Source: Candidatus Latescibacterota bacterium (GTDB taxonomy: Bacteria; Latescibacterota; UBA2968). From it: 64,000 nt of DNA. Each line of letters opens with the position of its first letter. The first letter of the stretch is position 1. The stretch lies in contig OZ242010.1 of NCBI GenBank assembly GCA_965204745.1, positions 3,488,001-3,552,000 of the forward strand. The letters are read 5' to 3'. Position numbers and translations under genes: made by a program. Below the pieces are notes generated by a model. The model made no database searches. It was not told the DNA's origin and saw only the letters and a list, made by a program, of their open reading frames with translations. Of the stretch, positions 22,717 to 62,505 are shown piece after piece.

Positions 22717-23013
22717 GTGTCTGAATCGCGGATTAAACGGATTAGGGGATTACGCGGATTACCCCCCACAACCCTACCGCAAAACCTATCCCCCCGGCCC
22801 CCTTTCCTACAAGGAAAGGGGGAGCGCATGGCTTTCTTAAAGGGTTGTATCCCTGGCTGCTTTGATGGCTTTGGGCGAATGGAGCACGCCATAGAACCCC
22901 AAACCCCCCTCGCGCAATCCTTCGCAAAACCTTTCGCCATTCCCCCTTCCTCGCAGGCACAGGCGTAGCCTACAACGAAGCGTAGCGAGTAACGGGGCCA
23001 GGGGGTAGGTCCC
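22717..23013. repeat. Left arm of the inverted repeat flanking adhesin 1 (9-mer CGGATTA repeats plus hairpin REPs)
   Basis: Reverse-complement match to 33608-34084; direct match to 61741-62156. Confidence 0.8.
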
Positions 23014-23066
23014 CCTCGCATGCCTTCTCGCTTGACTGACCACCGATCCTATCGTCATTTTTTTGC

Positions 23067-23096
23067 TTGACAAATAATAGCGCGATTCCCTATATT
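23067..23096 (+). promoter_or_regulatory. Sigma70 promoter of adhesin locus 1
   Basis: TTGACA-18 nt-TATATT, conserved at 62198-62227. Confidence 0.75.
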
Positions 23097-23178
23097 TTTT
23101 TCGTTCACCATTGCGATTTTGAACGCGGAGAAAAAGCCGCGCCCGGTCTGTGCGACAGCTTTGCAAAGGAGGATTCAG

Positions 23179-23370
23179 ATGATCACCGCCATTTTCAGCC
23201 GCTGTTTGAACCTCATTTGGCGCTATGTTTTTCCCGCCTGTCCCACCGCGAAAATTGGCGTTCATGACGCCCATCTCCGTCTTGGAGCGCGGTTCTATTT
23301 TATTGCAAAACAATCTTTTAGGATGATCAGTACAGTGTACCCCCCCCCCCCCCCTCGGAGGGAGACTAAA
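23179..23370 (+). promoter_or_regulatory. Leader ORF (64 codons, AGGAGG SD) crossing a C15 tract (23340-23354), in frame with the adhesin
   Basis: AAAGGAGGATTCAG-ATG at 23179; poly-C directly before TCGGAGGGAGACTAAA-ATG (23371). Confidence 0.65.
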
Positions 23371-26300
23371 ATGGTGCGCTTTATTTTTCGTTTTCTGTCC
23401 CTTCCAACATGGATCGCCGTGTTGGTCATGCCCTTGCTGATCGCCCCCGCGACAGCGCAGATGACGCCCTCGAATACCGATACGACCCTCAGCGCGCTGA
23501 CCCTCGCGCCAGGCACTCTGCTTTCCACATTTGCATCCGATAAAACCACCTACGCATTTGCCGTTCAATCCGGCGCGACAGAGATCACCGTGACCGCGAC
23601 CCCAACCAATTCGGGGGCAACTGTCGCCATCACGCCGGCCGATGCCAACCCGGCCAGCGGCCACCAAGTCGACGTATCTACCCTGCCGGTCAGCATTCGC
23701 ATCGTGGTTTCCCCCGCTACGGGAACGACCACGCTGACCTATACGGTCTCTGCCGGCAATTTTACCGACTACGACACCGATGGCGACAACCTCATTGAAC
23801 TCGGTGCTGGGCAAACCGGGCTGGCGCAACTGCATGCCATGCGCTGGGACCTCAATGGCAATGGTTTCATAGACGCCAGTGCCACGACCAGCGATACGAC
23901 CGCCTACAATACCGCTTTCTCCAACCGGCCGCCGGGGATGGGTTGCGAGACCACCTGTATCGGCTACGAACTGACGGCGAACCTAAACTTTGACGAGAAC
24001 AACGACAACGAAATCACCGTAGCAGACACCACCTACTGGAACAGCGGCGCAGGCTGGGCGCCCATCGGCAGCAGTGCGACGAAATACACCGGCACCTTCC
24101 ACGGCAACGACAATACCATCTCCAACCTGTTTATTGACCGCTCTGCCGCCAGCAAAACCGGGCTATTCGGCTATGCCGAGGGCAACACGATCCGCAATTT
24201 GAGCCTGGTGAACGCCAATGTGACCGGCTCTGCTGAAACCGCCGTCCTTGTTGGCGAAGGCAACAATCTACAGCTCATGCACATCCGCGTCACCGGACGG
24301 GTCAGCGGGTTTGCACGAAGCGGCGGCTTGGTGGGCAGGCTGGCGCACGGCAACTCGACCATTACCGCCTGTCGTTCCGAGGTGGACGTCACTGGGTCTA
24401 ATATAAGCATCGGCGGCTTGGTGGGCTGGAGTAGCGGCACGATAACCGCTAGCTATGCTACCGGTGCAGTCAGCGGCGATGGTTACGTCGGCGGCCTGGT
24501 GGGCTTCCACGGCAACACCGGCAACCCAAAGGCCATCATACGCGCCAGCTATGCCACCGGCGTAGTCAGCGGCAACTCTGCCATCGGTGGCCTGGTCGGT
24601 GCCAACTTCTATTCCAGCACGATAACCGGTAGCTATGCCATCGGCCCGGTCAGTGCTAATTCACTGGTTGGTGGCTTGGTCGGTACCAACAATAATTCAT
24701 CAATTACCCACAGCTACTACGATAGAACCACCTCTAGACGTGGCGACACCGGACGCGGTGCTCCCCAGACCACCGCCGAGCTCCAAGGCCCCACGGGTTA
24801 TACCGGCATCTACATGACGAATTGGGACCTGAACCTGGACGGGCAACCGGGCGGCGATGATCCGTGGACCTTTGGCAAGACGGATCAGTATCCGGTGTTG
24901 AAGTATGCCGGCATGGACACCACCGCGCAGTATAACTTGCAACCGCCGAGCATTCCGACAAGTGTGACCGTGACGATAATAGCGGACACCTTGGACGTGC
25001 GGTGGCGTGGGGTGAGTGGTGCGACGGGGTACAAGGTGCAGTGGAAATCCGGCACGCAGAGCTACGATACCGCCTCGCGTGAGGCGACCGTCACGGGGAC
25101 GCGCCACAAGATTCCCAACTTGACGTTTGGGACGACCTACACAGTGCGTGTCATTGCCACCAAAATCGGTGTGCGCGATGGCACACCCTCAGCAGAGCAG
25201 ACCGGCGTTCGCCCCAGGCTGGGCAGTCCGACTGTGATGGTGGCGGCGAAGGTGGACACGCTGACCGTGACTTGGAATGCGGCGAACGGGGCGACCGGCT
25301 ACAAAGTGCAGTGGAAATCCGGGTCAGCGACTTATCCCACCTCCGATCTGGCGTTGGCCACGCGCGGGCAAGCCACAATCTCTGATGGGAGCACCACGAC
25401 CTACAAAATTTCTGGGCTGACCACAGGGACGACCTACACGATTCGCGTCATCGCCACGAGTACCAATATCAATGTAGCCGACAGTGCCCCTTCGGAGGAA
25501 GTCATGGTGACCTTGGCGACCACCAAACCCACCAATGTGCGCGTGACGCCGGGGCCGGTCCAACTCATTGTGGCTTGGACCGAGGCAACCGGCGCGACGG
25601 GCTACAAGGTGCAGTGGAAGTCCGGTGGACAAAGCTACAACACCTCTTCTCGCCAGGAGACGGTCTCTGGAGGGAGCACCACGACCTATACAATAGAGAA
25701 CCTGACTTTTGGCACGACCTACACGGTGCGCGTCACTGCTACCCTGGCAGGTGGGACCGATAGTAATCCCTCGGACGAGGTCATGGGCACGCCCCAAGGG
25801 ATCGATTACGATGGCGATGGCAATGGCCTCATCGATATTGAGACGCTGGCGCAACTGCATGCCATCCGCTGGGATCTCAACGGCGATGGTGCCATAGACG
25901 CAAGTGCCTCAACCAGCGATACGACCGCCTACAACGCCGCCTTTCCCAACCGAGACACCACCAGCAACGTCCGGATGGGTTGCCCTTCTGGGACCTGCAC
26001 CGGCTACGAACTGCTCAACAACCTAAATTTCGACACCGACGGGAGCGGGAGCGTAACCTCTGACGACACCTACCCCAACTGGACGCCCATCGGAGGCACC
26101 TACTCAACCACGTTCAAGGGCAATAACAAGACCATCTCCAACCTGCACATCAACCGTGGCAGTTGGGATTATGTTGGGCTGTTCGGCCGTGTCAGCGGCA
26201 ACATTTCCGGTCTGGGTCTGAAAAGTGTCAATGTAAGAGGCAGAAATCGAGTGGGTGGGTTGGTCGGTAATCAGGTAGGGGGTCGCATCCTGGGCTGTTT

Positions 26301-29300
26301 TGTCACAGGTCGCGTTGAGGGTACTGGTGACCATGTGGGCGGTTTAGCGGGTCGTTCAACCGGCAATAATACCGTCATCGCGGCCAGCTATGCCAATGCT
26401 ACGGTGAGTGGGACGAAGGAGAATGTCGGCGGTTTGGTGGGCGTCCTAGATGCTACGGTGATAGCGTCCTACGCCATCGGGCCGGTGACTGGATGGACGA
26501 GGGTAGGCGGTTTGGTGGGGCTCTTGGGCATTTCTCCTAGTTCGATTAAGACCAGCTATGCCACGGGGACAGTCACCGGGAGCCGACAATCATCCATCCA
26601 TCTAGGCGGATTGGTTGGGAGTGCACAATCCGGAGTGTCCCATAGTTACTGGGATAGGGAAAGTAGCGGTCACTCATCCAGTGCTGGTGGCACGAGCCAG
26701 ACCACCAGCGAGTTGCGGTCAGAAACGGACTACGACGGCATCTACGCCAACTGGAATGTGGATGTCGATGGCAGGCCTGGCAGTGACAACCCGTGGACCT
26801 TTGGTGCGGCGGATCAGTATCCCGTGTTGAAATATGCCGGCATGGACACCACCGCACAATTTGCAATGCAACCGCCGGGCATTCCGACCAGTGTGACCGT
26901 GACGGTGCAAGCGGACACCTTGGACGTGCGTTGGCGTGCGGCGAGTTATGCGACGGGGTACAAGGTGCAGTGGAAAGCCGGCGGGCAGAACTACGCCGTC
27001 TCGCGTCAGGCCATCACCACGGATACGCGCTACAAGATCGCCAACTTGATCGGCGGGACGACCTACACAGTGCGTGTCATTGCCACCAAGACCGGTGCGC
27101 GCGATGGCATGCCCTCGGCAGAGCAGACCGGCGTTCCCTCCGCACTGAGCAGACCGGCTGTGATGGTGGCGGCGGATGTGGACACGCTGACCGTGACTTG
27201 GAATGTGGTGAACGGGGCGACCGGCTACAAAGTGCAGTGGAAATCCGGGTCAGAGACTTATCCCAACGCCGATCTGGCGGCCGCCTTGCGCGGGCAAGCC
27301 ACCATCGTAGGCGGGGGCACCACGATCCACAAAATTTCTGGGCTGACCGCAGGGACGACTTACACGATTCGCGTCATCGCCACGAGTACCAATATCAATG
27401 TAGCCGACAGTGCCCCTTCGGAGGAAGTGACCGTGCTGGGCATTCCGGCTGTGATGGTGGTGGCGAAGGTGGACACGCTGACCGTGACTTGGAACGCGGT
27501 GGACGATGCAACCGGGTATAAGGTGCAGTGGAAATCCGGGTCAGAGACTTATCCCAACGCCGATCTGGCGTTGGCCACGCACGGGCAAGCCACTATCGCT
27601 GACGGGGGCACCACGACCTACGATATTTCTGGGCTGACCGCAGGGACGACCTACACGGTTCGCGTCATCGCCACGCGTACCAATATCAGTGCCCTCTCGG
27701 CAGAGCAGACCGGCGATCCCCTGTTGGGTAGCCCGACGGGTGTGGATGTGAGTGCGAAGGTGGACACGCTAACCGTGACTTGGAATGTGGTGGACGATGC
27801 AACCGGGTATAAGGTGCAGTGGAAATCCGGGTCAGCGACTTATCCCGTCTCCGATCTGGCGTCCGTCACGCACGGGCATGCCACAATCTCTGACGGAGGC
27901 ACCACGACCTACGATATTTCTGGGCTGACCGCAGGGACGACCTACACGGTTCGCGTCATCGCCACGCGTACCAATGTAGCCGACAGTACCCCCTCGGAGG
28001 AAGTGACCGGCGTTCCTCTGCTGGGCAGTCCGGCTGTGATGGTGGCGGCGAAGGTGGACACGCTGACCGTGACTTGGAATGTGGTGGACGATGCAACCGG
28101 GTATAAGGTGCAGTGGAAGTCCGGGTCAGAGACTTATCCCGCCGCCGATGAGCAGTCCGCCACGCGCGGGCAAGCCACCATCGCAGGCGGGAACACCACG
28201 ATCCACAAAATTTCTGGGCTGACCGCAGGGACGACCTACACGGTTCGCGTCATCGCCACGCGTACCAATGTAGCCGACAGTGCCCCCTCGGAGGAAGTCA
28301 TGGTGACCTTGGCGACCACCAGGCCCACCAATGTGCGCGTGACGCCGGGGCCGGGCCAACTCATTGTGCGTTGGACCGAGGCAACCGGCGCGACGGGCTA
28401 CAAGGTGCAGTGGAAGTCCGGTGGACAAAGCTACAACACCTCTTCTCGCCAGGAGACGGTCTCTGGGATGAGCACCACGACCTACACGATAGAGAACCTG
28501 ACGCTTGGCACGACCTACACGGTGCGCGTCATTGCTATCCTGTCAGGTGGGATGGATAGCACGCCCTCGGACGAGGTCATGGGCACGCCCTCAGGGATCA
28601 ATTACGACAGCGATGGCGATGGCCTCATCGACATTAAGACGCTGGCGCAACTGCATGCCATCCGCTGGGATCTCAACGGCGATGGTGCTGTGGACGCAAG
28701 TGCCTCGTCCAGCGATACGACCGCCTACAACGCCGCCTTTCCCTACCGAGACACCACCAGCAACGTCCGGATGGGTTGCCCTTCCGGAACCTGCACCGGC
28801 TACGAACTGCTCAACAACCTCGACTTCGACACCGACGGGAGCGGGAGCGTAACCTCTGACGACACCTACCCCAACTGGTCGCCCATCGGAGGCACCTACT
28901 CGGCAACGTTCAAGGGCAATAACAAGACGATCTCCAACCTGCACATCAACCAGGGCAGTTGGAATGATGTTGGGCTGTTCTCCCGTGTCAGCGGCAACAT
29001 TTCCGGTCTGGGGCTGAAAAATGTCAATGTAAGAGGCAGAGAACGAGTGGGTGGGTTGGTCGGTAATCAGGTGGGAGGCCGCATCCTGGGCTGTTTTGTC
29101 ACGGGTCGCGTTGAGGGTACTCGTAACTCTGTGGGCGGTTTAGCGGGTGAATCAAGCGGCAATAATACCGTCATCGCGGCCAGCTATGCCAATGCTGTGG
29201 TCTCCGTAGGGCATATTCGTGCAGGGGCCGGCGGTTTGGTGGGCAAACTAAGTGCTACGGTGATAGCGTCCTACGCCATCGGGCCGGCGAGTGGACATTC

Positions 29301-32300
29301 CAGGGTAGGCGGTCTGGTGGGGCAGTTGGGCATTTCTCCTAGTTCGGTTAGTACCAGCTATGCCACGGGGACGGTCACTGGGCGCTACCATGACTCCAGC
29401 CAACTAGGCGGATTGATCGGGCATGCACAAGCCGGAGTGTCCCATAGTTACTGGGATAAGGAAAGTAGCGGTCGCTCATCCAGTGCTCGCGGCACGGGCC
29501 AGACCACCAGCGCGTTGCGGTCGGAAACGGATTACAACGGCATCTACGCCAACTGGAATGTGGATGTCGATGGCAGGCCTGGCAATGACGCTCCGTGGAC
29601 CTTTGGCGCGGCGGATCAGTATCCCGTGTTGAAATATGCCGGCATGGACACCACCGCACAATTTGCAATGCAACCGCCGGGCATTCCGACAAGTGTGACC
29701 GTGACGGTGCAAGCGGACACCTTGGACGTGCGTTGGCGTGCGCCGAGTAATGCGACGGGGTACAAGGTGCAGTGGAAATCCGGCGCGCAGAACTACGACA
29801 CCTCGCGTCAGACGACCGTCACGGGGACGCGCTACAAGATCGCCAACTTGATCGGCGGGACGACTTACACAGTGCGGGTCATTGCCACCAAGGCCGGTGT
29901 CCGCGATGGCCGGCCCTCGGCCGAGCAGACCGGCGTTCCCCTGCTGGGCATTCCGACTGTGATGATGGTGGCAGCGAAGGTGGACACGCTGACCGTGACT
30001 TGGAATGCGGTGAACGGGGCGACCAGCTACAAAGTGCAGTGGAAATCCGGGTCAGAGACTTATCCCGCCGCCGATGAGGAGTCCGCCACGCACGGGCAAG
30101 CCACTATCGCTGGCGGGAGCACCACGATCCACAAAATTTCTGGGCTGACCCCAGGGACGACCTACGCGATTCGCGTCATCGCCACGCGTACCAATGTAGC
30201 CGACAGTGCCCCTTCGGAGGAAGTGATCACCCTTCTCACGCTGGGTAGCCCAACGGGTGTGGAGGTGAGTGCGAAGGTGGACACGCTGACCGTGACTTGG
30301 AATGCGGTGCCCCTCGCAACCGGGTATAAGGTGCAGTGGAAATCCGGGGCACAGACTTATCCCACCTCCGATCTGGCGTTGGCCACGCATGGGCAAGCCA
30401 CCATCGCAGGCGGGAACACCACGATCCACAAAATTTCTGGGCTGACCACAGGGACGACTTACGCGATTCGCGTCATCGCCACGCACACCACAACGGCCGG
30501 CAACAGTGCCCCTTCGGAGGAAGTCATGGTGACCTCGGCGACCACCAGGCCCACCAATGTGCGCGTGACGCCGGGGCCGGCCCAACTCATTGTGGCTTGG
30601 ACCGAGGCAACCGGCGCGACGGGCTACAAGGTGCAGTGGAAGTCCGGTGGACAAAGCTACAACACATCTGATCGCCAGGCGACGGTCTCTGGGATGAGCA
30701 CCACGACCTACACGATAGAGAACCTGACTTTTGGCGCGACCTACACGGTGCGCGTCACTGCTACCCTGGCAGGTGGGACCGATAGCGATCCCTCGGACGA
30801 AGTCATGGGCACGCCCCAAGCGATCAATTACGACAGCGATGGCGATGGCCTCATTGACATTAAGACGCTGGCGCAACTGCATGCCATCCGCTGGGATCTC
30901 AACGGCGATGGGGTCGTCGCCGATAATGATACCACGAACTACAACGCCGCCTTTCCCAACCGAGACACTACCAGCAATGTCCGGATGGGTTGCCCTTCCG
31001 GAACCTGCACCGGCTACGAACTGCTCAACAACCTTGACTTTGACGAGAATGGCGACAGCGAAATCACTTCAGCAGACGCCACCTACTGGGACAGCGGCTT
31101 CGGCTGGCTACCCATCGGCACAAACGCCGCCAGATACACCGGCGATTTCAAGGGCAACGGCTACACTATCGACAACCTGACCATCAACCGACCCGCTGTC
31201 GTTGAAGTGGGATTATTCGGCAATGCCGACACCGCCTCCCGCATCGAGTCCGTCGGCGTAACCAATGCCAGTGTTGCGGGAGGCGAATATGCCGGCGCTC
31301 TGGTCGGTGCCCTGCGCGGCACAGTCGTCGCCTGCTACTCCACCGGCAACGTTTCGGTGACGACTAGGACCGCCGGCGGACTGGTCGGATGGACGCCCAA
31401 CGCGATTACCTCAAGCTACTCCACCGCATCCGTCAGCGGCCCTGAGCACGTCGGCGGACTGCTGGGAGCAAGCCAAGGCGGCACCGTAACGAACTCCTAC
31501 TCCATCGGCATGGTTACCGGCACCGGCAGTTCTCCACTCATCGGCGGGTTGATAGGCTCCGGCACGGGCGGCACCGCAAGCTACTGGGACACCCAAACCA
31601 GCGGCTGTACATCCGGCGGCAGCAACGGTTGCACAACCAGCGCCGGCGGTGGCGGCGTTACCGGACTGACGACCAGCGAGCTCATAAGCCCCACCACCTA
31701 CGGTGCCACCAGCAACGACACCTACTACGGCTGGAACGCCAACCTCGACGGACAACCCGGCAACGATGATCCGTGGACCTTTGGCACGACGAATCAGTAC
31801 CCGGTCTTGAAGTATGCCGGCATGGACACCACCGTGCAATTTCAACGCCAACCCGCGATAGTGATGTTGACACTGATGCCCTCGTCGATCTCGGAAAGCG
31901 GCGGGATGAGTACCGTGACCGCGACGCTGACACGGTCGTGGAGCACGGCGACGACGATCACGGTGCGGCCTGTGACCGGTGCTTACACGGTGGGGATGGA
32001 TTCGACGATCACCATCGCGGCAGGGCAAACCGCGAACGCGTCGGATACGGTGGTCATCACAGCGGTGGACAACACCCGAGACGAACTTAATCGCGACGTG
32101 ACCGTGTCCGTTGTATCAGCCAACGCCCAGGGCAGTGTGGTCCTCCCGACTGCAATAACGATCACCGATGATGACCCGCCGCCGAGGCTCTCGATTAGTT
32201 CGCCGAGTGCGGTTGAGGGCACTGCCCTGACGTTCACCGTTAGATTGAATGCAGAAAGCGGCAAGGAGGTGACGGTGGCGTATGCAGACGCGGGCACGGG

Positions 32301-33228
32301 CAGCGCGACTTCGGGGACCGATTACACCGCGCTTACCGCAGGAACCCTGACCTTCGCGGCGGGCACGACCAGCCAGACCATCGCTGTTTCTGTGAGCGAC
32401 GACGGGGATGATGAGCCGAACGAGACCGTGATCGTGACGCTGAGCAGTGCGACCAATGCGACCATAAGCACGGCGCAAGGCACAGGAACGATTATCGATG
32501 ACGATGGCATGCCTGCGCTGAGTATCGGTTCGCCAAGCGTGATTGAAGGCGTGACCAGCGCGACCCTGACCTTTCAGGTGTACCTACGCCCGGCGCACAC
32601 GGCACAGGTGACAGTGGCGTATGCAGACGCGGGCACGGGCACCGCGACTTCGGGGACCGATTACACCGCGCTCACCGCAGGGACCCTGACCTTCGCGGCG
32701 AGCGATACCATCCAGACCATCCCTGTTTCTGTGACCGACGACTCGGATGATGAGCCGAACGAGACCGTGATCGTGACGCTGAGCAATGCGACCAATGCGA
32801 CCATAAGCACGGCGCAAGGCACAGGGACGATTATCGATGACGAAACACCGAGTGCCAACTTGGATGTGGATGGCGATGGCCGGGTGAGATTGTTCTCGGA
32901 TATAATCCTGGTCATTCGATACGTCCTCTTCTTCCGGAACGAGGCCCTCCTCAGAGGGAACGTCATCGAGCCAACTGCCACGCGCACGACCGCTCAAGAA
33001 ATTGAACCCTACCTCGACACGTTGGTCGATCAGAACATTCTCGATGTGGATGGCGATGGCGATGTGAGGCTGTTCTCGGATATAATCCTGATCATTCGAT
33101 ATGTCCTCTTCTTCCGGAACGAGGCCCTCGTCAGAGGGAACGTCATCGAGCCAACTGCCACACGCACGACCGCTCAAGAAATTGAACCCTACATCCGAAG
33201 CCTCTATCCCGACTCCCACTTCCAATGA
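23371..33228 (+). CDS. Giant secreted adhesin-like protein (~3285 aa): signal peptide, cadherin-like domain, 4 GLUG beta-helix modules, 13 FN3 repeats, Calx-beta domains, duplicated dockerin-like C-terminus
   Basis: MVRFIFRF...APATA signal; repeated VGGLVG motifs; 13 YKVQWK FN3 motifs; VTVAYAD...GTLTFAAG...DDGDDEPNETV Calx-beta; 2x LDVDGDG...LFSDIIL.IRY. Confidence 0.9.
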   Translation: MVRFIFRFLSLPTWIAVLVMPLLIAPATAQMTPSNTDTTLSALTLAPGTLLSTFASDKTTYAFAVQSGATEITVTATPTNSGATVAITPADANPASGHQVDVSTLPVSIRIVVSPATGTTTLTYTVSAGNFTDYDTDGDNLIELGAGQTGLAQLHAMRWDLNGNGFIDASATTSDTTAYNTAFSNRPPGMGCETTCIGYELTANLNFDENNDNEITVADTTYWNSGAGWAPIGSSATKYTGTFHGNDNTISNLFIDRSAASKTGLFGYAEGNTIRNLSLVNANVTGSAETAVLVGEGNNLQLMHIRVTGRVSGFARSGGLVGRLAHGNSTITACRSEVDVTGSNISIGGLVGWSSGTITASYATGAVSGDGYVGGLVGFHGNTGNPKAIIRASYATGVVSGNSAIGGLVGANFYSSTITGSYAIGPVSANSLVGGLVGTNNNSSITHSYYDRTTSRRGDTGRGAPQTTAELQGPTGYTGIYMTNWDLNLDGQPGGDDPWTFGKTDQYPVLKYAGMDTTAQYNLQPPSIPTSVTVTIIADTLDVRWRGVSGATGYKVQWKSGTQSYDTASREATVTGTRHKIPNLTFGTTYTVRVIATKIGVRDGTPSAEQTGVRPRLGSPTVMVAAKVDTLTVTWNAANGATGYKVQWKSGSATYPTSDLALATRGQATISDGSTTTYKISGLTTGTTYTIRVIATSTNINVADSAPSEEVMVTLATTKPTNVRVTPGPVQLIVAWTEATGATGYKVQWKSGGQSYNTSSRQETVSGGSTTTYTIENLTFGTTYTVRVTATLAGGTDSNPSDEVMGTPQGIDYDGDGNGLIDIETLAQLHAIRWDLNGDGAIDASASTSDTTAYNAAFPNRDTTSNVRMGCPSGTCTGYELLNNLNFDTDGSGSVTSDDTYPNWTPIGGTYSTTFKGNNKTISNLHINRGSWDYVGLFGRVSGNISGLGLKSVNVRGRNRVGGLVGNQVGGRILGCFVTGRVEGTGDHVGGLAGRSTGNNTVIAASYANATVSGTKENVGGLVGVLDATVIASYAIGPVTGWTRVGGLVGLLGISPSSIKTSYATGTVTGSRQSSIHLGGLVGSAQSGVSHSYWDRESSGHSSSAGGTSQTTSELRSETDYDGIYANWNVDVDGRPGSDNPWTFGAADQYPVLKYAGMDTTAQFAMQPPGIPTSVTVTVQADTLDVRWRAASYATGYKVQWKAGGQNYAVSRQAITTDTRYKIANLIGGTTYTVRVIATKTGARDGMPSAEQTGVPSALSRPAVMVAADVDTLTVTWNVVNGATGYKVQWKSGSETYPNADLAAALRGQATIVGGGTTIHKISGLTAGTTYTIRVIATSTNINVADSAPSEEVTVLGIPAVMVVAKVDTLTVTWNAVDDATGYKVQWKSGSETYPNADLALATHGQATIADGGTTTYDISGLTAGTTYTVRVIATRTNISALSAEQTGDPLLGSPTGVDVSAKVDTLTVTWNVVDDATGYKVQWKSGSATYPVSDLASVTHGHATISDGGTTTYDISGLTAGTTYTVRVIATRTNVADSTPSEEVTGVPLLGSPAVMVAAKVDTLTVTWNVVDDATGYKVQWKSGSETYPAADEQSATRGQATIAGGNTTIHKISGLTAGTTYTVRVIATRTNVADSAPSEEVMVTLATTRPTNVRVTPGPGQLIVRWTEATGATGYKVQWKSGGQSYNTSSRQETVSGMSTTTYTIENLTLGTTYTVRVIAILSGGMDSTPSDEVMGTPSGINYDSDGDGLIDIKTLAQLHAIRWDLNGDGAVDASASSSDTTAYNAAFPYRDTTSNVRMGCPSGTCTGYELLNNLDFDTDGSGSVTSDDTYPNWSPIGGTYSATFKGNNKTISNLHINQGSWNDVGLFSRVSGNISGLGLKNVNVRGRERVGGLVGNQVGGRILGCFVTGRVEGTRNSVGGLAGESSGNNTVIAASYANAVVSVGHIRAGAGGLVGKLSATVIASYAIGPASGHSRVGGLVGQLGISPSSVSTSYATGTVTGRYHDSSQLGGLIGHAQAGVSHSYWDKESSGRSSSARGTGQTTSALRSETDYNGIYANWNVDVDGRPGNDAPWTFGAADQYPVLKYAGMDTTAQFAMQPPGIPTSVTVTVQADTLDVRWRAPSNATGYKVQWKSGAQNYDTSRQTTVTGTRYKIANLIGGTTYTVRVIATKAGVRDGRPSAEQTGVPLLGIPTVMMVAAKVDTLTVTWNAVNGATSYKVQWKSGSETYPAADEESATHGQATIAGGSTTIHKISGLTPGTTYAIRVIATRTNVADSAPSEEVITLLTLGSPTGVEVSAKVDTLTVTWNAVPLATGYKVQWKSGAQTYPTSDLALATHGQATIAGGNTTIHKISGLTTGTTYAIRVIATHTTTAGNSAPSEEVMVTSATTRPTNVRVTPGPAQLIVAWTEATGATGYKVQWKSGGQSYNTSDRQATVSGMSTTTYTIENLTFGATYTVRVTATLAGGTDSDPSDEVMGTPQAINYDSDGDGLIDIKTLAQLHAIRWDLNGDGVVADNDTTNYNAAFPNRDTTSNVRMGCPSGTCTGYELLNNLDFDENGDSEITSADATYWDSGFGWLPIGTNAARYTGDFKGNGYTIDNLTINRPAVVEVGLFGNADTASRIESVGVTNASVAGGEYAGALVGALRGTVVACYSTGNVSVTTRTAGGLVGWTPNAITSSYSTASVSGPEHVGGLLGASQGGTVTNSYSIGMVTGTGSSPLIGGLIGSGTGGTASYWDTQTSGCTSGGSNGCTTSAGGGGVTGLTTSELISPTTYGATSNDTYYGWNANLDGQPGNDDPWTFGTTNQYPVLKYAGMDTTVQFQRQPAIVMLTLMPSSISESGGMSTVTATLTRSWSTATTITVRPVTGAYTVGMDSTITIAAGQTANASDTVVITAVDNTRDELNRDVTVSVVSANAQGSVVLPTAITITDDDPPPRLSISSPSAVEGTALTFTVRLNAESGKEVTVAYADAGTGSATSGTDYTALTAGTLTFAAGTTSQTIAVSVSDDGDDEPNETVIVTLSSATNATISTAQGTGTIIDDDGMPALSIGSPSVIEGVTSATLTFQVYLRPAHTAQVTVAYADAGTGTATSGTDYTALTAGTLTFAASDTIQTIPVSVTDDSDDEPNETVIVTLSNATNATISTAQGTGTIIDDETPSANLDVDGDGRVRLFSDIILVIRYVLFFRNEALLRGNVIEPTATRTTAQEIEPYLDTLVDQNILDVDGDGDVRLFSDIILIIRYVLFFRNEALVRGNVIEPTATRTTAQEIEPYIRSLYPDSHFQ

Positions 33229-61404: not shown

Positions 61405-62156
61405 TCACCTCTCCCGTCTTACGTCTCACTGAAGGGGGTTGGGCAGGGTGGGAACTGACAACTGACAACTGACTACTGACAATGCGAATTAAGAGTAGAA
61501 AGCGAGTAAGAAGCAAGCCGCAACCCATCATCCAAAGACATGAACGAGTTTCTGTTGACATTTTGTTTTAGAGCGATGAGCGTGGCCGTCCTTTCCGCCT
61601 CCCACCCGTGTCTGAATCGCGGATTAAGCGGATTACCCCACACCGCCCAACCACCCGTGCGTTCCCGTCCCGTCCCTACCCCGCCATGTGCGAGCCTCAC
61701 CGCGCCGCCGCCCGTGCGTGCCCGTCCTTTCCGCCCTGCCGTGTCTGAATCGCGGATTAAACGGATTAGGGGATTACGCGGATTACCCCACACCGCCCAA
61801 CCGCCATAGCCCTATCCCCCCGGCCCCCGTTATTCGCTTCGCTCATTGTAGGCTACGCCTGTGCCTACGAGGAAAGGGGGAGCGCGTGGCTTTCTTGAAG
61901 GGTTGTATCCCTGGCTATTCTGATGGCTTTGGGCGAATGGATCGCGCCATGAAAATGCGACCTATCCCCCCGGCCCCCTTTCCTACGAGGAAAGGGGGAG
62001 CGCATGGCTTTCTTAAAGGGTTGTATCCCTGGCTACTTTGATGGCTTTGCGCGAATGGATAATGCCATAGAAACCCAAACTCCCCTCGCACAATCCCTCG
62101 CACAACCTCTCGCCATTCCCCCTTCCTCTTAGGAAGGGGGCCAGGGGGTAGGTCCC
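61405..62156. repeat. Composite repeat block upstream of adhesin 2 (heptamers, end-C/end-A fragments, 9-mers, hairpin REPs)
   Basis: Matches 21420-21503 (inverted), 22717-23013 (direct) and 33608-34084 (inverted). Confidence 0.8.
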
Positions 62157-62197
62157 CCTCGCTTGACTGACCACCGATCCCATCGTCATTTTACCGC

Positions 62198-62227
62198 TTG
62201 ACAAACAATAGCGTGATTCCCTATATT
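62198..62227 (+). promoter_or_regulatory. Sigma70 promoter of adhesin locus 2
   Basis: TTGACA-18 nt-TATATT. Confidence 0.75.
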
Positions 62228-62310
62228 TTTCCCGTTCACCATTGCGATTTTGAACGCGAAGAAAAAGTCGCGCCCGGTCTGTGCGACAACTTTTGCAAAG
62301 GAGGCTTCAG

Positions 62311-62505
62311 ATGATTATCGCCATTTTCAGCCGCTGTTTGAACCTCATTTGGCACTATGTTTTTCCCGCCTGTCCCACCGCGAAAAGTGGCGTTCATATC
62401 GCCCATCCTCGTCTTGGAGTGCGGTTCTATTTTATTGCAAAACAGCCTGTTACGATGATCAGTACAGTGTACCCCCCCCCCCCCCCCCCCTCGGAGGGAG
62501 ACTAA
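62311..62505 (+). CDS. Leader ORF (64 aa) crossing a C19 tract (62472-62490); stops 1 nt before the adhesin ATG
   Basis: AAAGGAGGCTTCAG-ATG; ...YPPPPPPSEGD-TAA-A-ATG. Confidence 0.6.
   Translation: MIIAIFSRCLNLIWHYVFPACPTAKSGVHIAHPRLGVRFYFIAKQPVTMISTVYPPPPPPSEGD

Follow-up and report, generated by a model that had tools for sequence, protein, structure and literature searches.

A poly-C tract within a translated leader ahead of giant secreted proteins in a Latescibacterota bacterium: a candidate translational contingency switch

Repeat-driven phase variation is textbook knowledge for host-adapted pathogens, where the repeat lies in the gene or in its promoter. What, then, does a long run of cytosines do when it lies in a small open reading frame (ORF) of its own, ahead of the gene for a giant secreted protein? 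This question is raised by a 64,000-nucleotide (nt) stretch of DNA (the window; contig OZ242010.1, positions 3,488,001 to 3,552,000 of the forward strand) from assembly GCA_965204745.1 of a Candidatus Latescibacterota bacterium, whose genome is a single contig of 5.48 Mb with 56.5% G+C. Two genes for giant putative adhesins begin in the window, and each is preceded by a leader ORF that has its own Shine-Dalgarno (SD) sequence and ATG and runs into a poly-C tract. A preliminary description of the window had proposed that slippage in this leader switches the two adhesins among three translational states. We find that the element is a real feature and is probably a translational contingency switch, a variant on repeat-driven phase variation. 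The more specific reading, that it acts via the frame in which ribosomes exit the leader, is the one we favour, at a probability of roughly 0.55 judged from sequence comparison. The parts of the two loci are as follows.

23067..23096, + strand: sigma-70-like promoter of locus 1 (TTGACA, 18 nt, TATATT), 11/12 positions matching in the promoter scan
23167..23172, + strand: leader SD of locus 1, AGGAGG, read in the sequence
23179..23214, + strand: leader codons 1-12 of locus 1 (MITAIFSRCLNL), with protein-type conservation by codon position
23179..23339, + strand: leader ORF of locus 1 from ATG to tract, 161 nt; the assembled form runs in frame into the adhesin
23293..23339, + strand: pre-tract block conserved at the nucleotide level, with GATC and then the palindrome GTACAGTGTAC (23330-23340) at its end
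23340..23354, + strand: poly-C tract of locus 1, C15, proline whatever the frame
23355..23370, + strand: spacer of locus 1, TCGGAGGGAGACTAAA, with the adhesin SD and with the TAA at which one leader frame ends
23371..33228, + strand: giant secreted repeat protein of locus 1, 3285 amino acids (aa), putative adhesin (ORF list, domain search)
62198..62227, + strand: promoter-like hexamers of locus 2 (TTGACA ... TATATT), the same as at locus 1 by alignment to it
62299-62304, + strand: leader SD of locus 2, AGGAGG
62311..62505, + strand: leader ORF of locus 2, 64 aa, ending in TAA (62503-62505), followed by one A and the adhesin ATG
62472-62490, + strand: poly-C tract of locus 2, C19
62507..64000, + strand: second giant protein, of which only the start is in the window; 5667 aa in the genome

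The layout first drawn for the two loci, of promoter, SD-ATG leader, poly-C tract and adhesin SD-ATG, holds, and so do the coordinates of the leader ATGs, the tracts and the adhesin ATGs. Pairwise alignment from leader ATG to adhesin ATG left the 4-nt difference in the tract (C15 versus C19) as the single indel, as had been claimed; one more indel, of 1 nt, separates the loci upstream of the leader SD. At locus 1 the distance of 192 nt between the leader ATG and the adhesin ATG at 23371 puts the two in one frame, and in the ORF list the fused frame appears as a single ORF (23119..33228). At locus 2 the distance is 196 nt and the leader ends at TAA-A-ATG. Both of these exits had been read correctly and were confirmed in the sequence. 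The geometry of translational coupling, with an upstream stop within a few bases of the start, is present at locus 2 but not at locus 1 as assembled. For the third frame, which overruns the adhesin start, the stop originally given for locus 2 (62634) was right, but at locus 1 the first stop is the TGA at 23438-23440 and not one at 23498. The C-only sequence also bears out that the tract encodes proline in any frame. The locus 1 protein has a signal peptide and Cadherin-like, 13 fn3, GLUG and Calx-beta domains, which make 'adhesin' a reasonable, if putative, label; no C-terminal sorting domain was found in it with NCBIfam, where the sole match was a repeat family.

Both loci are copies of a ~300-nt cassette made up of promoter, SD-ATG leader, poly-C and SD. 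The stretch from promoter to tract end is repeated through the genome, giving 40 matches in a genome search and 38 BLAST hits, and the 34 loci analysed here are those that keep the 3' part of the cassette together with a downstream gene. The two adhesin paralogs of the preliminary description are thus real, but its scope was too narrow: the cassette stands at 34 genes of several N-terminal families, and in two further species. The -35 hexamer is kept in most copies. All 34 downstream ORFs start with a signal-peptide-like N-terminus; 32 have lengths from 838 to 6292 aa and the other two, of 59 and 128 aa, are cut short, and together they amount to 83,644 codons, or 4.6% of the genome. The downstream proteins form several N-terminal families plus hybrids, the window's family beginning with MVRFIFRFLSLPTWIA, the majority family with MxPRYAHLLALVALGMLVASGPAFAQTDYD and a third family with MTMFSRIYPV.

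Two side observations concern these downstream genes. The signal peptide at locus G000:C1:4852632-4852650, MTSHYPRLLSLPTWIAVLL, mixes majority-family and window-family sequence, which suggests recombination between cassette-linked genes. The two loci with main ORFs of only 59 and 128 codons (G000:C1:276197 and 4491927) have long tracts, and may be pseudogenes or may carry further frameshifts.

The tracts are far longer than expected by chance. The genome holds 33 runs of at least 10 C or G, the longest of 25, compared with a longest A or T run of 12, and most of its long C/G runs sit at the ends of cassette copies. A long tract (n = 12 to 25) is present in 24 of the copies, and the other 10 have C3-C6 or an interrupted run. 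Among 40 related genomes, cassette DNA matched two congeners, G018 at 13 places and G016 at 2, and the congener tracts range from C9 to C31. A search of 185,579 species genomes with an exact pattern for the cassette end returned two records only, both of them chromosomes of Latescibacteria/Latescibacterota metagenome-assembled genomes. When a C14 pattern was counted in 31 genomes of the family, ~25 long C/G tracts were found here, ~17 in G018 and 0-2 in each of the other 29. Four cassette-free congeners, G020, G010, G009 and G011 (L053, L055, L057 and L051), each have one long tract in the common context TA-Cn-GAA(A/T); these TA-Cn-GAA tracts were set aside as a different element, having no clear SD-ATG leader.

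A profile of the leader peptide searched against 1.84 billion protein representatives gave 25 matches, of which 24 show this leader arrangement, some as small ORFs and others joined to giant proteins, and the 25th is a weak match to an unrelated-looking repeat protein; that search produced no wider family from which a function could be borrowed, and no Pfam domain was found in the leader. Of 23 metagenome runs listed, all stored as contigs and none of them an RNA run, 18 hold part of the stretch, and the 8 studies concerned are labelled sponge, marine or plain metagenome. Pattern scans of metagenome contigs for the cassette in independent assemblies gave no match; in the four of the 23 runs that were inspected the material consists of short unitigs, the longest listed piece being 364 nt, and none crosses the tract.

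Is the leader translated? A start codon is found at the aligned position in 33/34 local copies (32 ATG, 1 GTG), with an SD-like motif upstream of it in 32/34. The frame is open to the tract in all 33 local and all 13 foreign copies, the latter from two other species, i.e., 46/46, so that the leader proposed from two loci is stop-free in the homologues as well. In 30 aligned leaders there are no stops in frame 0 against 85 and 35 in the other two frames, and the three leaders outside this alignment are likewise open up to the tract. The foreign leaders stay open despite ~30% divergence, with the middle of the peptide barely alignable. Distances from ATG to tract of 149 (the commonest), 161, 182, 92, 155 and 146 nt correspond to internal indels of +12, +33, -57, +6 and -3, and all the leader-internal indels are multiples of three; lengths off this rule (145, 146, 147, 148, 151, 152, 154, 160) go back to changes at or beside the tract junction, interruption of the tract or its loss. 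Diversity by codon position, computed over 34 leader copies from three genomes, is 0.184/0.092/0.359 for codons 1-12 (M-I/L-T-A-I-F-S/R-R-C-L/S-N-L), which is a protein signature, and 0.408/0.298/0.332 for the nearly unconstrained middle.

A structured cis-regulatory RNA, such as a riboswitch or thermosensor, was considered in place of a translated leader and ruled out: the cassette leader has no Rfam match at E<=1, a single-sequence fold of the whole leader is unexceptional (z = -0.55) and the RNAalifold consensus structure over 34 leaders is empty. Because the ORF is open, indels come in threes, the N-terminus is conserved and there is no conserved RNA fold, these comparisons indicate selection for a leader that is translated as far as the tract and on into it.

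What follows the tract is arranged just as tightly. The purine-rich SD of the main gene begins 0-3 nt after the end of the tract; this SD is present in 32/34 local and 13/13 foreign copies, 4-18 nt ahead of the main ATG. The tract end itself stands 14-19 nt from the main ATG, therefore the footprint of a ribosome that has reached the final prolines must cover part of the main initiation site. A leader read in one of the non-fused frames would, at 33/34 loci, reach a stop within the interval from -10 to +1 relative to the main ATG, and at some loci this is true of both non-fused frames. The stop takes the form ATGA in the majority family; in the window's family it is TAAAATG, and in a third group TGATATG. 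The remaining non-fused frame overruns the main ATG by 61 to 182 nt. The preliminary description had also suggested that CCCT of the tract pairs with AGGG of the adhesin SD. For the majority family, folding does predict a hairpin over the SD, in which the final Cs form six pairs with the G run of the main SD, but it is no better than in shuffled sequence.

With the tract inside a conserved ORF, its length sets the frame of the leader relative to the main start, and on this geometry we propose the following mechanism. A portable ~300-nt cassette would supply, in order, a promoter, a ~75-nt untranslated stretch, an SD-ATG leader, poly-C within that leader, and the SD of the main gene. The tract is proline in every frame, therefore leader ribosomes would always get through it, and its length modulo 3 would decide how they leave: by termination at a stop codon that overlaps the main ATG or lies immediately ahead of it, by reading on in frame and adding ~60 residues ahead of the signal peptide, or by overrunning the start out of frame and stopping 67-127 nt into the main gene. 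The first exit would most likely be the ON state, via termination-reinitiation or opening of the SD, and the overrun most likely the OFF state, with the role of the fused state less certain. Through replication slippage, each of the 34 genes would then move among these states on its own, in a heritable and reversible manner, and a clonal population would thereby display varied sets of giant surface proteins. Further control may come from proline stalling linked to elongation factor P (EF-P), and from leader ribosomes masking a C-rich Rho-loading site.

The states in which the loci were assembled bear on whether the frame matters at all. The 24 long-tract loci (n>=12) comprise 10 fused, 9 stop-at-start and 5 overrun; the 13 foreign copies 4, 5 and 4; and the nine decayed (C3-C6) local loci that still bear a leader 4, 4 and 1. 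As assembled, stop-at-start geometry is thus found at 9/24 long-tract and 4/10 short-tract loci. The long-tract and foreign totals (14/14/9) do not depart from equal thirds (chi-square about 1.4).

One alternative that draws on the fused loci is that the fused reading is simply the gene: translation would start at the leader ATG, the tract would be an ordinary 5' coding repeat, the gene would be ON only when in frame, and the 'adhesin ATG' would be an internal methionine. The fused state accounts for 10/24 long-tract and 4/9 decayed loci, fused forms occur in other assemblies (P0025, P0026, P0032, P0046), and at locus 2402309- as well as in P0036, P0040 and P0042 the tract has been deleted with leader and main ORF joined in frame. 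However, the supposedly internal ATG has the strong SD described above in 32/34 and 13/13 copies, a canonical signal-peptide-like sequence begins exactly there, and a 60-residue extension bearing polyproline in front of a signal peptide would be atypical. Conservation of the ATGA/TAAAATG stop in the second frame is also hard to reconcile with such a gene, as are four decayed loci fixed in the non-fused, stop-at-start form with their giant ORFs intact. We therefore regard this explanation as quite improbable.

A second alternative leaves the leader translated but makes the frame irrelevant. Poly(C) is a strong activator of Rho, and the cassette could be an attenuator like tnaC or speFL: by stalling at the polyproline run, leader ribosomes would keep Rho off its poly-C loading site and so permit transcription into the long genes; tract length would then be a by-product, or a graded dial of stall strength, and not a three-state frame switch. 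Such an attenuator would accord with a leader ORF that is conserved as far as the tract and not past it, with a tract that gives a run of five or more prolines in all frames, in a genome that encodes Rho and EF-P, with state counts no different from equal thirds, and with the persistence of both fused and stop-at-start states at decayed loci. Attenuators that depend on an upstream ORF (uORF) and Rho are, moreover, established, going by the available part of PMC12360218. It offers no reason, though, for pure hypermutable runs of 15-31 C instead of mixed proline codons, it leaves unexplained why 33/34 loci have, in one frame, a stop that coincides with the main ATG or closely precedes it, and ten loci work with tracts of only C3-C6. 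We consider it unlikely; it is compatible with a frame switch, and both may hold.

The frame switch proposed here relies on tracts that change in length, and in the assembled copies they do differ. Values of n range over C12-C25 in this genome and C9-C31 in a congener, and they differ both between near-identical paralogs and between assemblies. Identity of 93% or more on each of the two 150-nt flanks was reached by three paralog pairs only; these are all from G018, with tract lengths of 16, 17 and 28, and where flanks are 94-100% identical, tract length differs by 1 to 12 bases. When the locus 2 leader was searched against 5.8 billion proteins, 20 small ORFs from other assemblies were recovered, with proline runs of 2 to 9 and tails (LERGTK, SGGATK, SEGD) that reveal differing exit frames. 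Among these comparisons, P0002 shares 50/54 residues with the locus 1 leader before the proline run, and has five prolines followed by the window-family spacer read as SEGD-stop; it is stop-at-start, while locus 1 is fused. P0011 equals the leader of locus 3201401- bar one residue, and has three prolines and a stop-at-start tail as against C15 and fusion locally. When the fused locus 1 protein was used as query, adhesins of the window's family were recovered from other assemblies, the leader being fused in P0044 and P0046 and no fused leader being present in P0045, P0047, P0049 and P0051. A third-family member, P0081, from a 5.28-Mb genome, has five prolines, and the two local third-family copies have C5 or no tract. 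Orthology between assemblies was judged by similarity alone, and some of the short runs may be assembly collapse. Taken over all these copies, tract length diverges fast between paralogs and between assemblies.

It could be argued instead that the tract is invariant in vivo, being a fixed cis element (a template-strand G-quadruplex, or a protein or small-RNA site together with the palindrome) or else a mis-assembled homopolymer, with the differences between copies due to slow divergence or consensus error. The contig pieces to hand, none of which crosses a tract, reveal no heterogeneity at read level; the pre-tract block with GATC and GTACA-N-TGTAC is conserved as nucleotides; and most tracts are at least 15 long, which would suffice for a four-stack template-strand G-quadruplex. 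Against this stand the differences of 1 to 12 bases between paralogs with 94-100% identical flanks, the span of lengths from 12 to 31, and the differing proline-run lengths of closely similar leaders in independent assemblies. Homopolymers of such length, moreover, are generally known to slip. We consider an invariant tract very improbable. Of the slippage switch in a dedicated leader as originally conceived, the architecture, the translatable leader, the fast divergence in length and the three states have stood, its restriction to two paralogs has not, and slippage itself and its effect on output are what we infer from them.

Several points nevertheless weigh against control through the exit frame. 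With an SD of their own, the main genes may be translated independently of the leader. The fused state is among those found at decayed loci and therefore cannot simply be OFF. Equal-thirds state counts fit random switching, but equally fit irrelevance of the frame. Assembled tract lengths are possibly one base off, therefore any single state call could change, and the metagenome pieces inspected over the stretch are short unitigs that span no tract; RNA polymerase slippage on long runs could, in addition, blur the frame at the RNA level. In a test for avoidance of stop-creating changes in the leader, 15 of 483 possible changes would create a stop, and none is seen among the 123 variants observed, which is suggestive only. 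Finally, conservation in the 47 nt that lead up to the tract is by nucleotide and not by codon. Diversity in the last 18 leader codons is 0.193/0.201/0.166, with no codon periodicity, and since this block is conserved equally at all codon positions, something besides the peptide is conserved there. The palindrome GTACA-N-TGTAC and GATC adjoin the tract, and congener G018 has GTACAATGTAC, in which the central base alone is changed (G to A). The frame-switch model gives no account of this block.

How does the cassette compare with systems already described? It has the slip-prone repeat length and the frame placement of a contingency locus, from which an effect on output would follow. One parallel is offered by surface-protein genes that carry a repeat within their 5' coding region, among them opa and pilC of Neisseria. 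The poly-G genes of C. jejuni, in the material available on them, likewise have a hypermutable repeat in a translated frame, depend on length modulo 3 and occupy many surface loci. Here, however, the tract belongs to a conserved upstream ORF that is distinct from the regulated gene and has an SD to itself, and the mature protein is never altered; furthermore, there is a third outcome, termination at the start codon, and several gene families unrelated to one another share one cassette. Promoter-spacer tracts of poly-C or poly-G upstream of surface-protein genes cause phase variation in Bordetella fim and Neisseria opc and porA. Those lie between -35 and -10, whereas here the sole promoter-like site on the + strand (23067-23096) is ~245 nt from the tract at 23340, and a promoter-spacer homopolymer switch was rejected; nor would tracts of 15-31 nt fit into a 16-18-nt spacer.

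The G-repeat of RepG-tlpB is also a length-variable homopolymer in a long 5' leader near the ribosome-binding site, with post-transcriptional tuning, but as described in the parts of PMC8295292 and PMC12721329 available it is untranslated and pairs with a small RNA, unlike the tract here, which is inside a translated ORF. Nearly every run of 10 or more G in this genome belongs to a cassette tract, with no search aimed at a G-rich small RNA having been made. The hmw adhesins of H. influenzae resemble the present loci in being large adhesin genes with a repeat between promoter and start codon and with post-transcriptional steps; the repeats are heptanucleotides, a structured 5' untranslated region and RNase III are involved, and the available portion of PMC12721329 describes no leader ORF or frame logic. 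The uORF Rho attenuators tnaC, speFL and cruR share with the cassette a short translated leader, with arrest near its end and masking of an adjacent C-rich Rho site, but they are ligand-responsive and of fixed sequence, with no hypermutable homopolymer and no frame switching in what PMC12360218 makes available on them. No description of a repeat tract within an upstream ORF was found in the literature searched, most subscription journals being outside its scope. On these comparisons we put forward, tentatively and with somewhat less than even confidence, that the cassette represents a new class of phase variation, in which a hypermutable poly-C within a conserved translated leader would give three-state control of ~34 giant genes, leaving the mature proteins unchanged and adding polyproline and Rho inputs.

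With the repeat in a dedicated upstream ORF, one cassette could subject any gene for a secreted protein to stochastic control while its product is left untouched, and the same element would join two other known layers of control, polyproline stalling and a possible Rho-loading site. If the frame switch is true, one cell line of this uncultured bacterium could show very many combinations of giant fn3/cadherin-like/Calx-beta surface proteins, which would bear on how bacteria persist in, or escape being eaten by, a filter-feeding sponge host. A strategy of contingency loci of the pathogen type would then be used at large scale in a sponge-associated, possibly symbiotic, bacterium of a candidate phylum. 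The tracts also hold a warning for annotation, as gene callers place the start differently by one homopolymer base.

Other homopolymers and repeats of the genome touch on the cassette less directly. At G000:C1:1833000-1833018 a C19 follows an unrelated SD-ATG short ORF (MSRLDLFGRGFYVYKKQQLT, then prolines) and precedes a 289-aa secreted-looking protein, possibly the same arrangement in a second, independent case. At G000:C1:732472-732492 a G21 (C21 on the gene strand) lies 40 nt ahead of a 3973-aa ORF; the sequence upstream differs from that of the cassette and shows no clear SD-ATG leader. Just upstream of the two window cassettes, at 22790-23040 and 61930-62160, are members of a very abundant intergenic repeat family with palindromic cores, e.g., CCCTTTCCTACAAGGAAAGGGGG; three pieces of it gave 101-207 BLAST hits of at least 60 nt in the genome, and contig depth over it reaches up to ~90 times that of the adhesin (run X1). 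A CRISPR-like array with the repeat ATCTCCCCTTACATCCGTGAGGGGAGCGGATTGAAAC lies at G000:C1 ~1466540-1466980 and has C10T8 in one spacer. Two near-identical copies of more than 400 nt, at G000:C1:3250395-3250407 and 4295687-4295699, each have C13 followed by GAAAATCTAATG, and are probably a duplicated element unrelated to the cassette.

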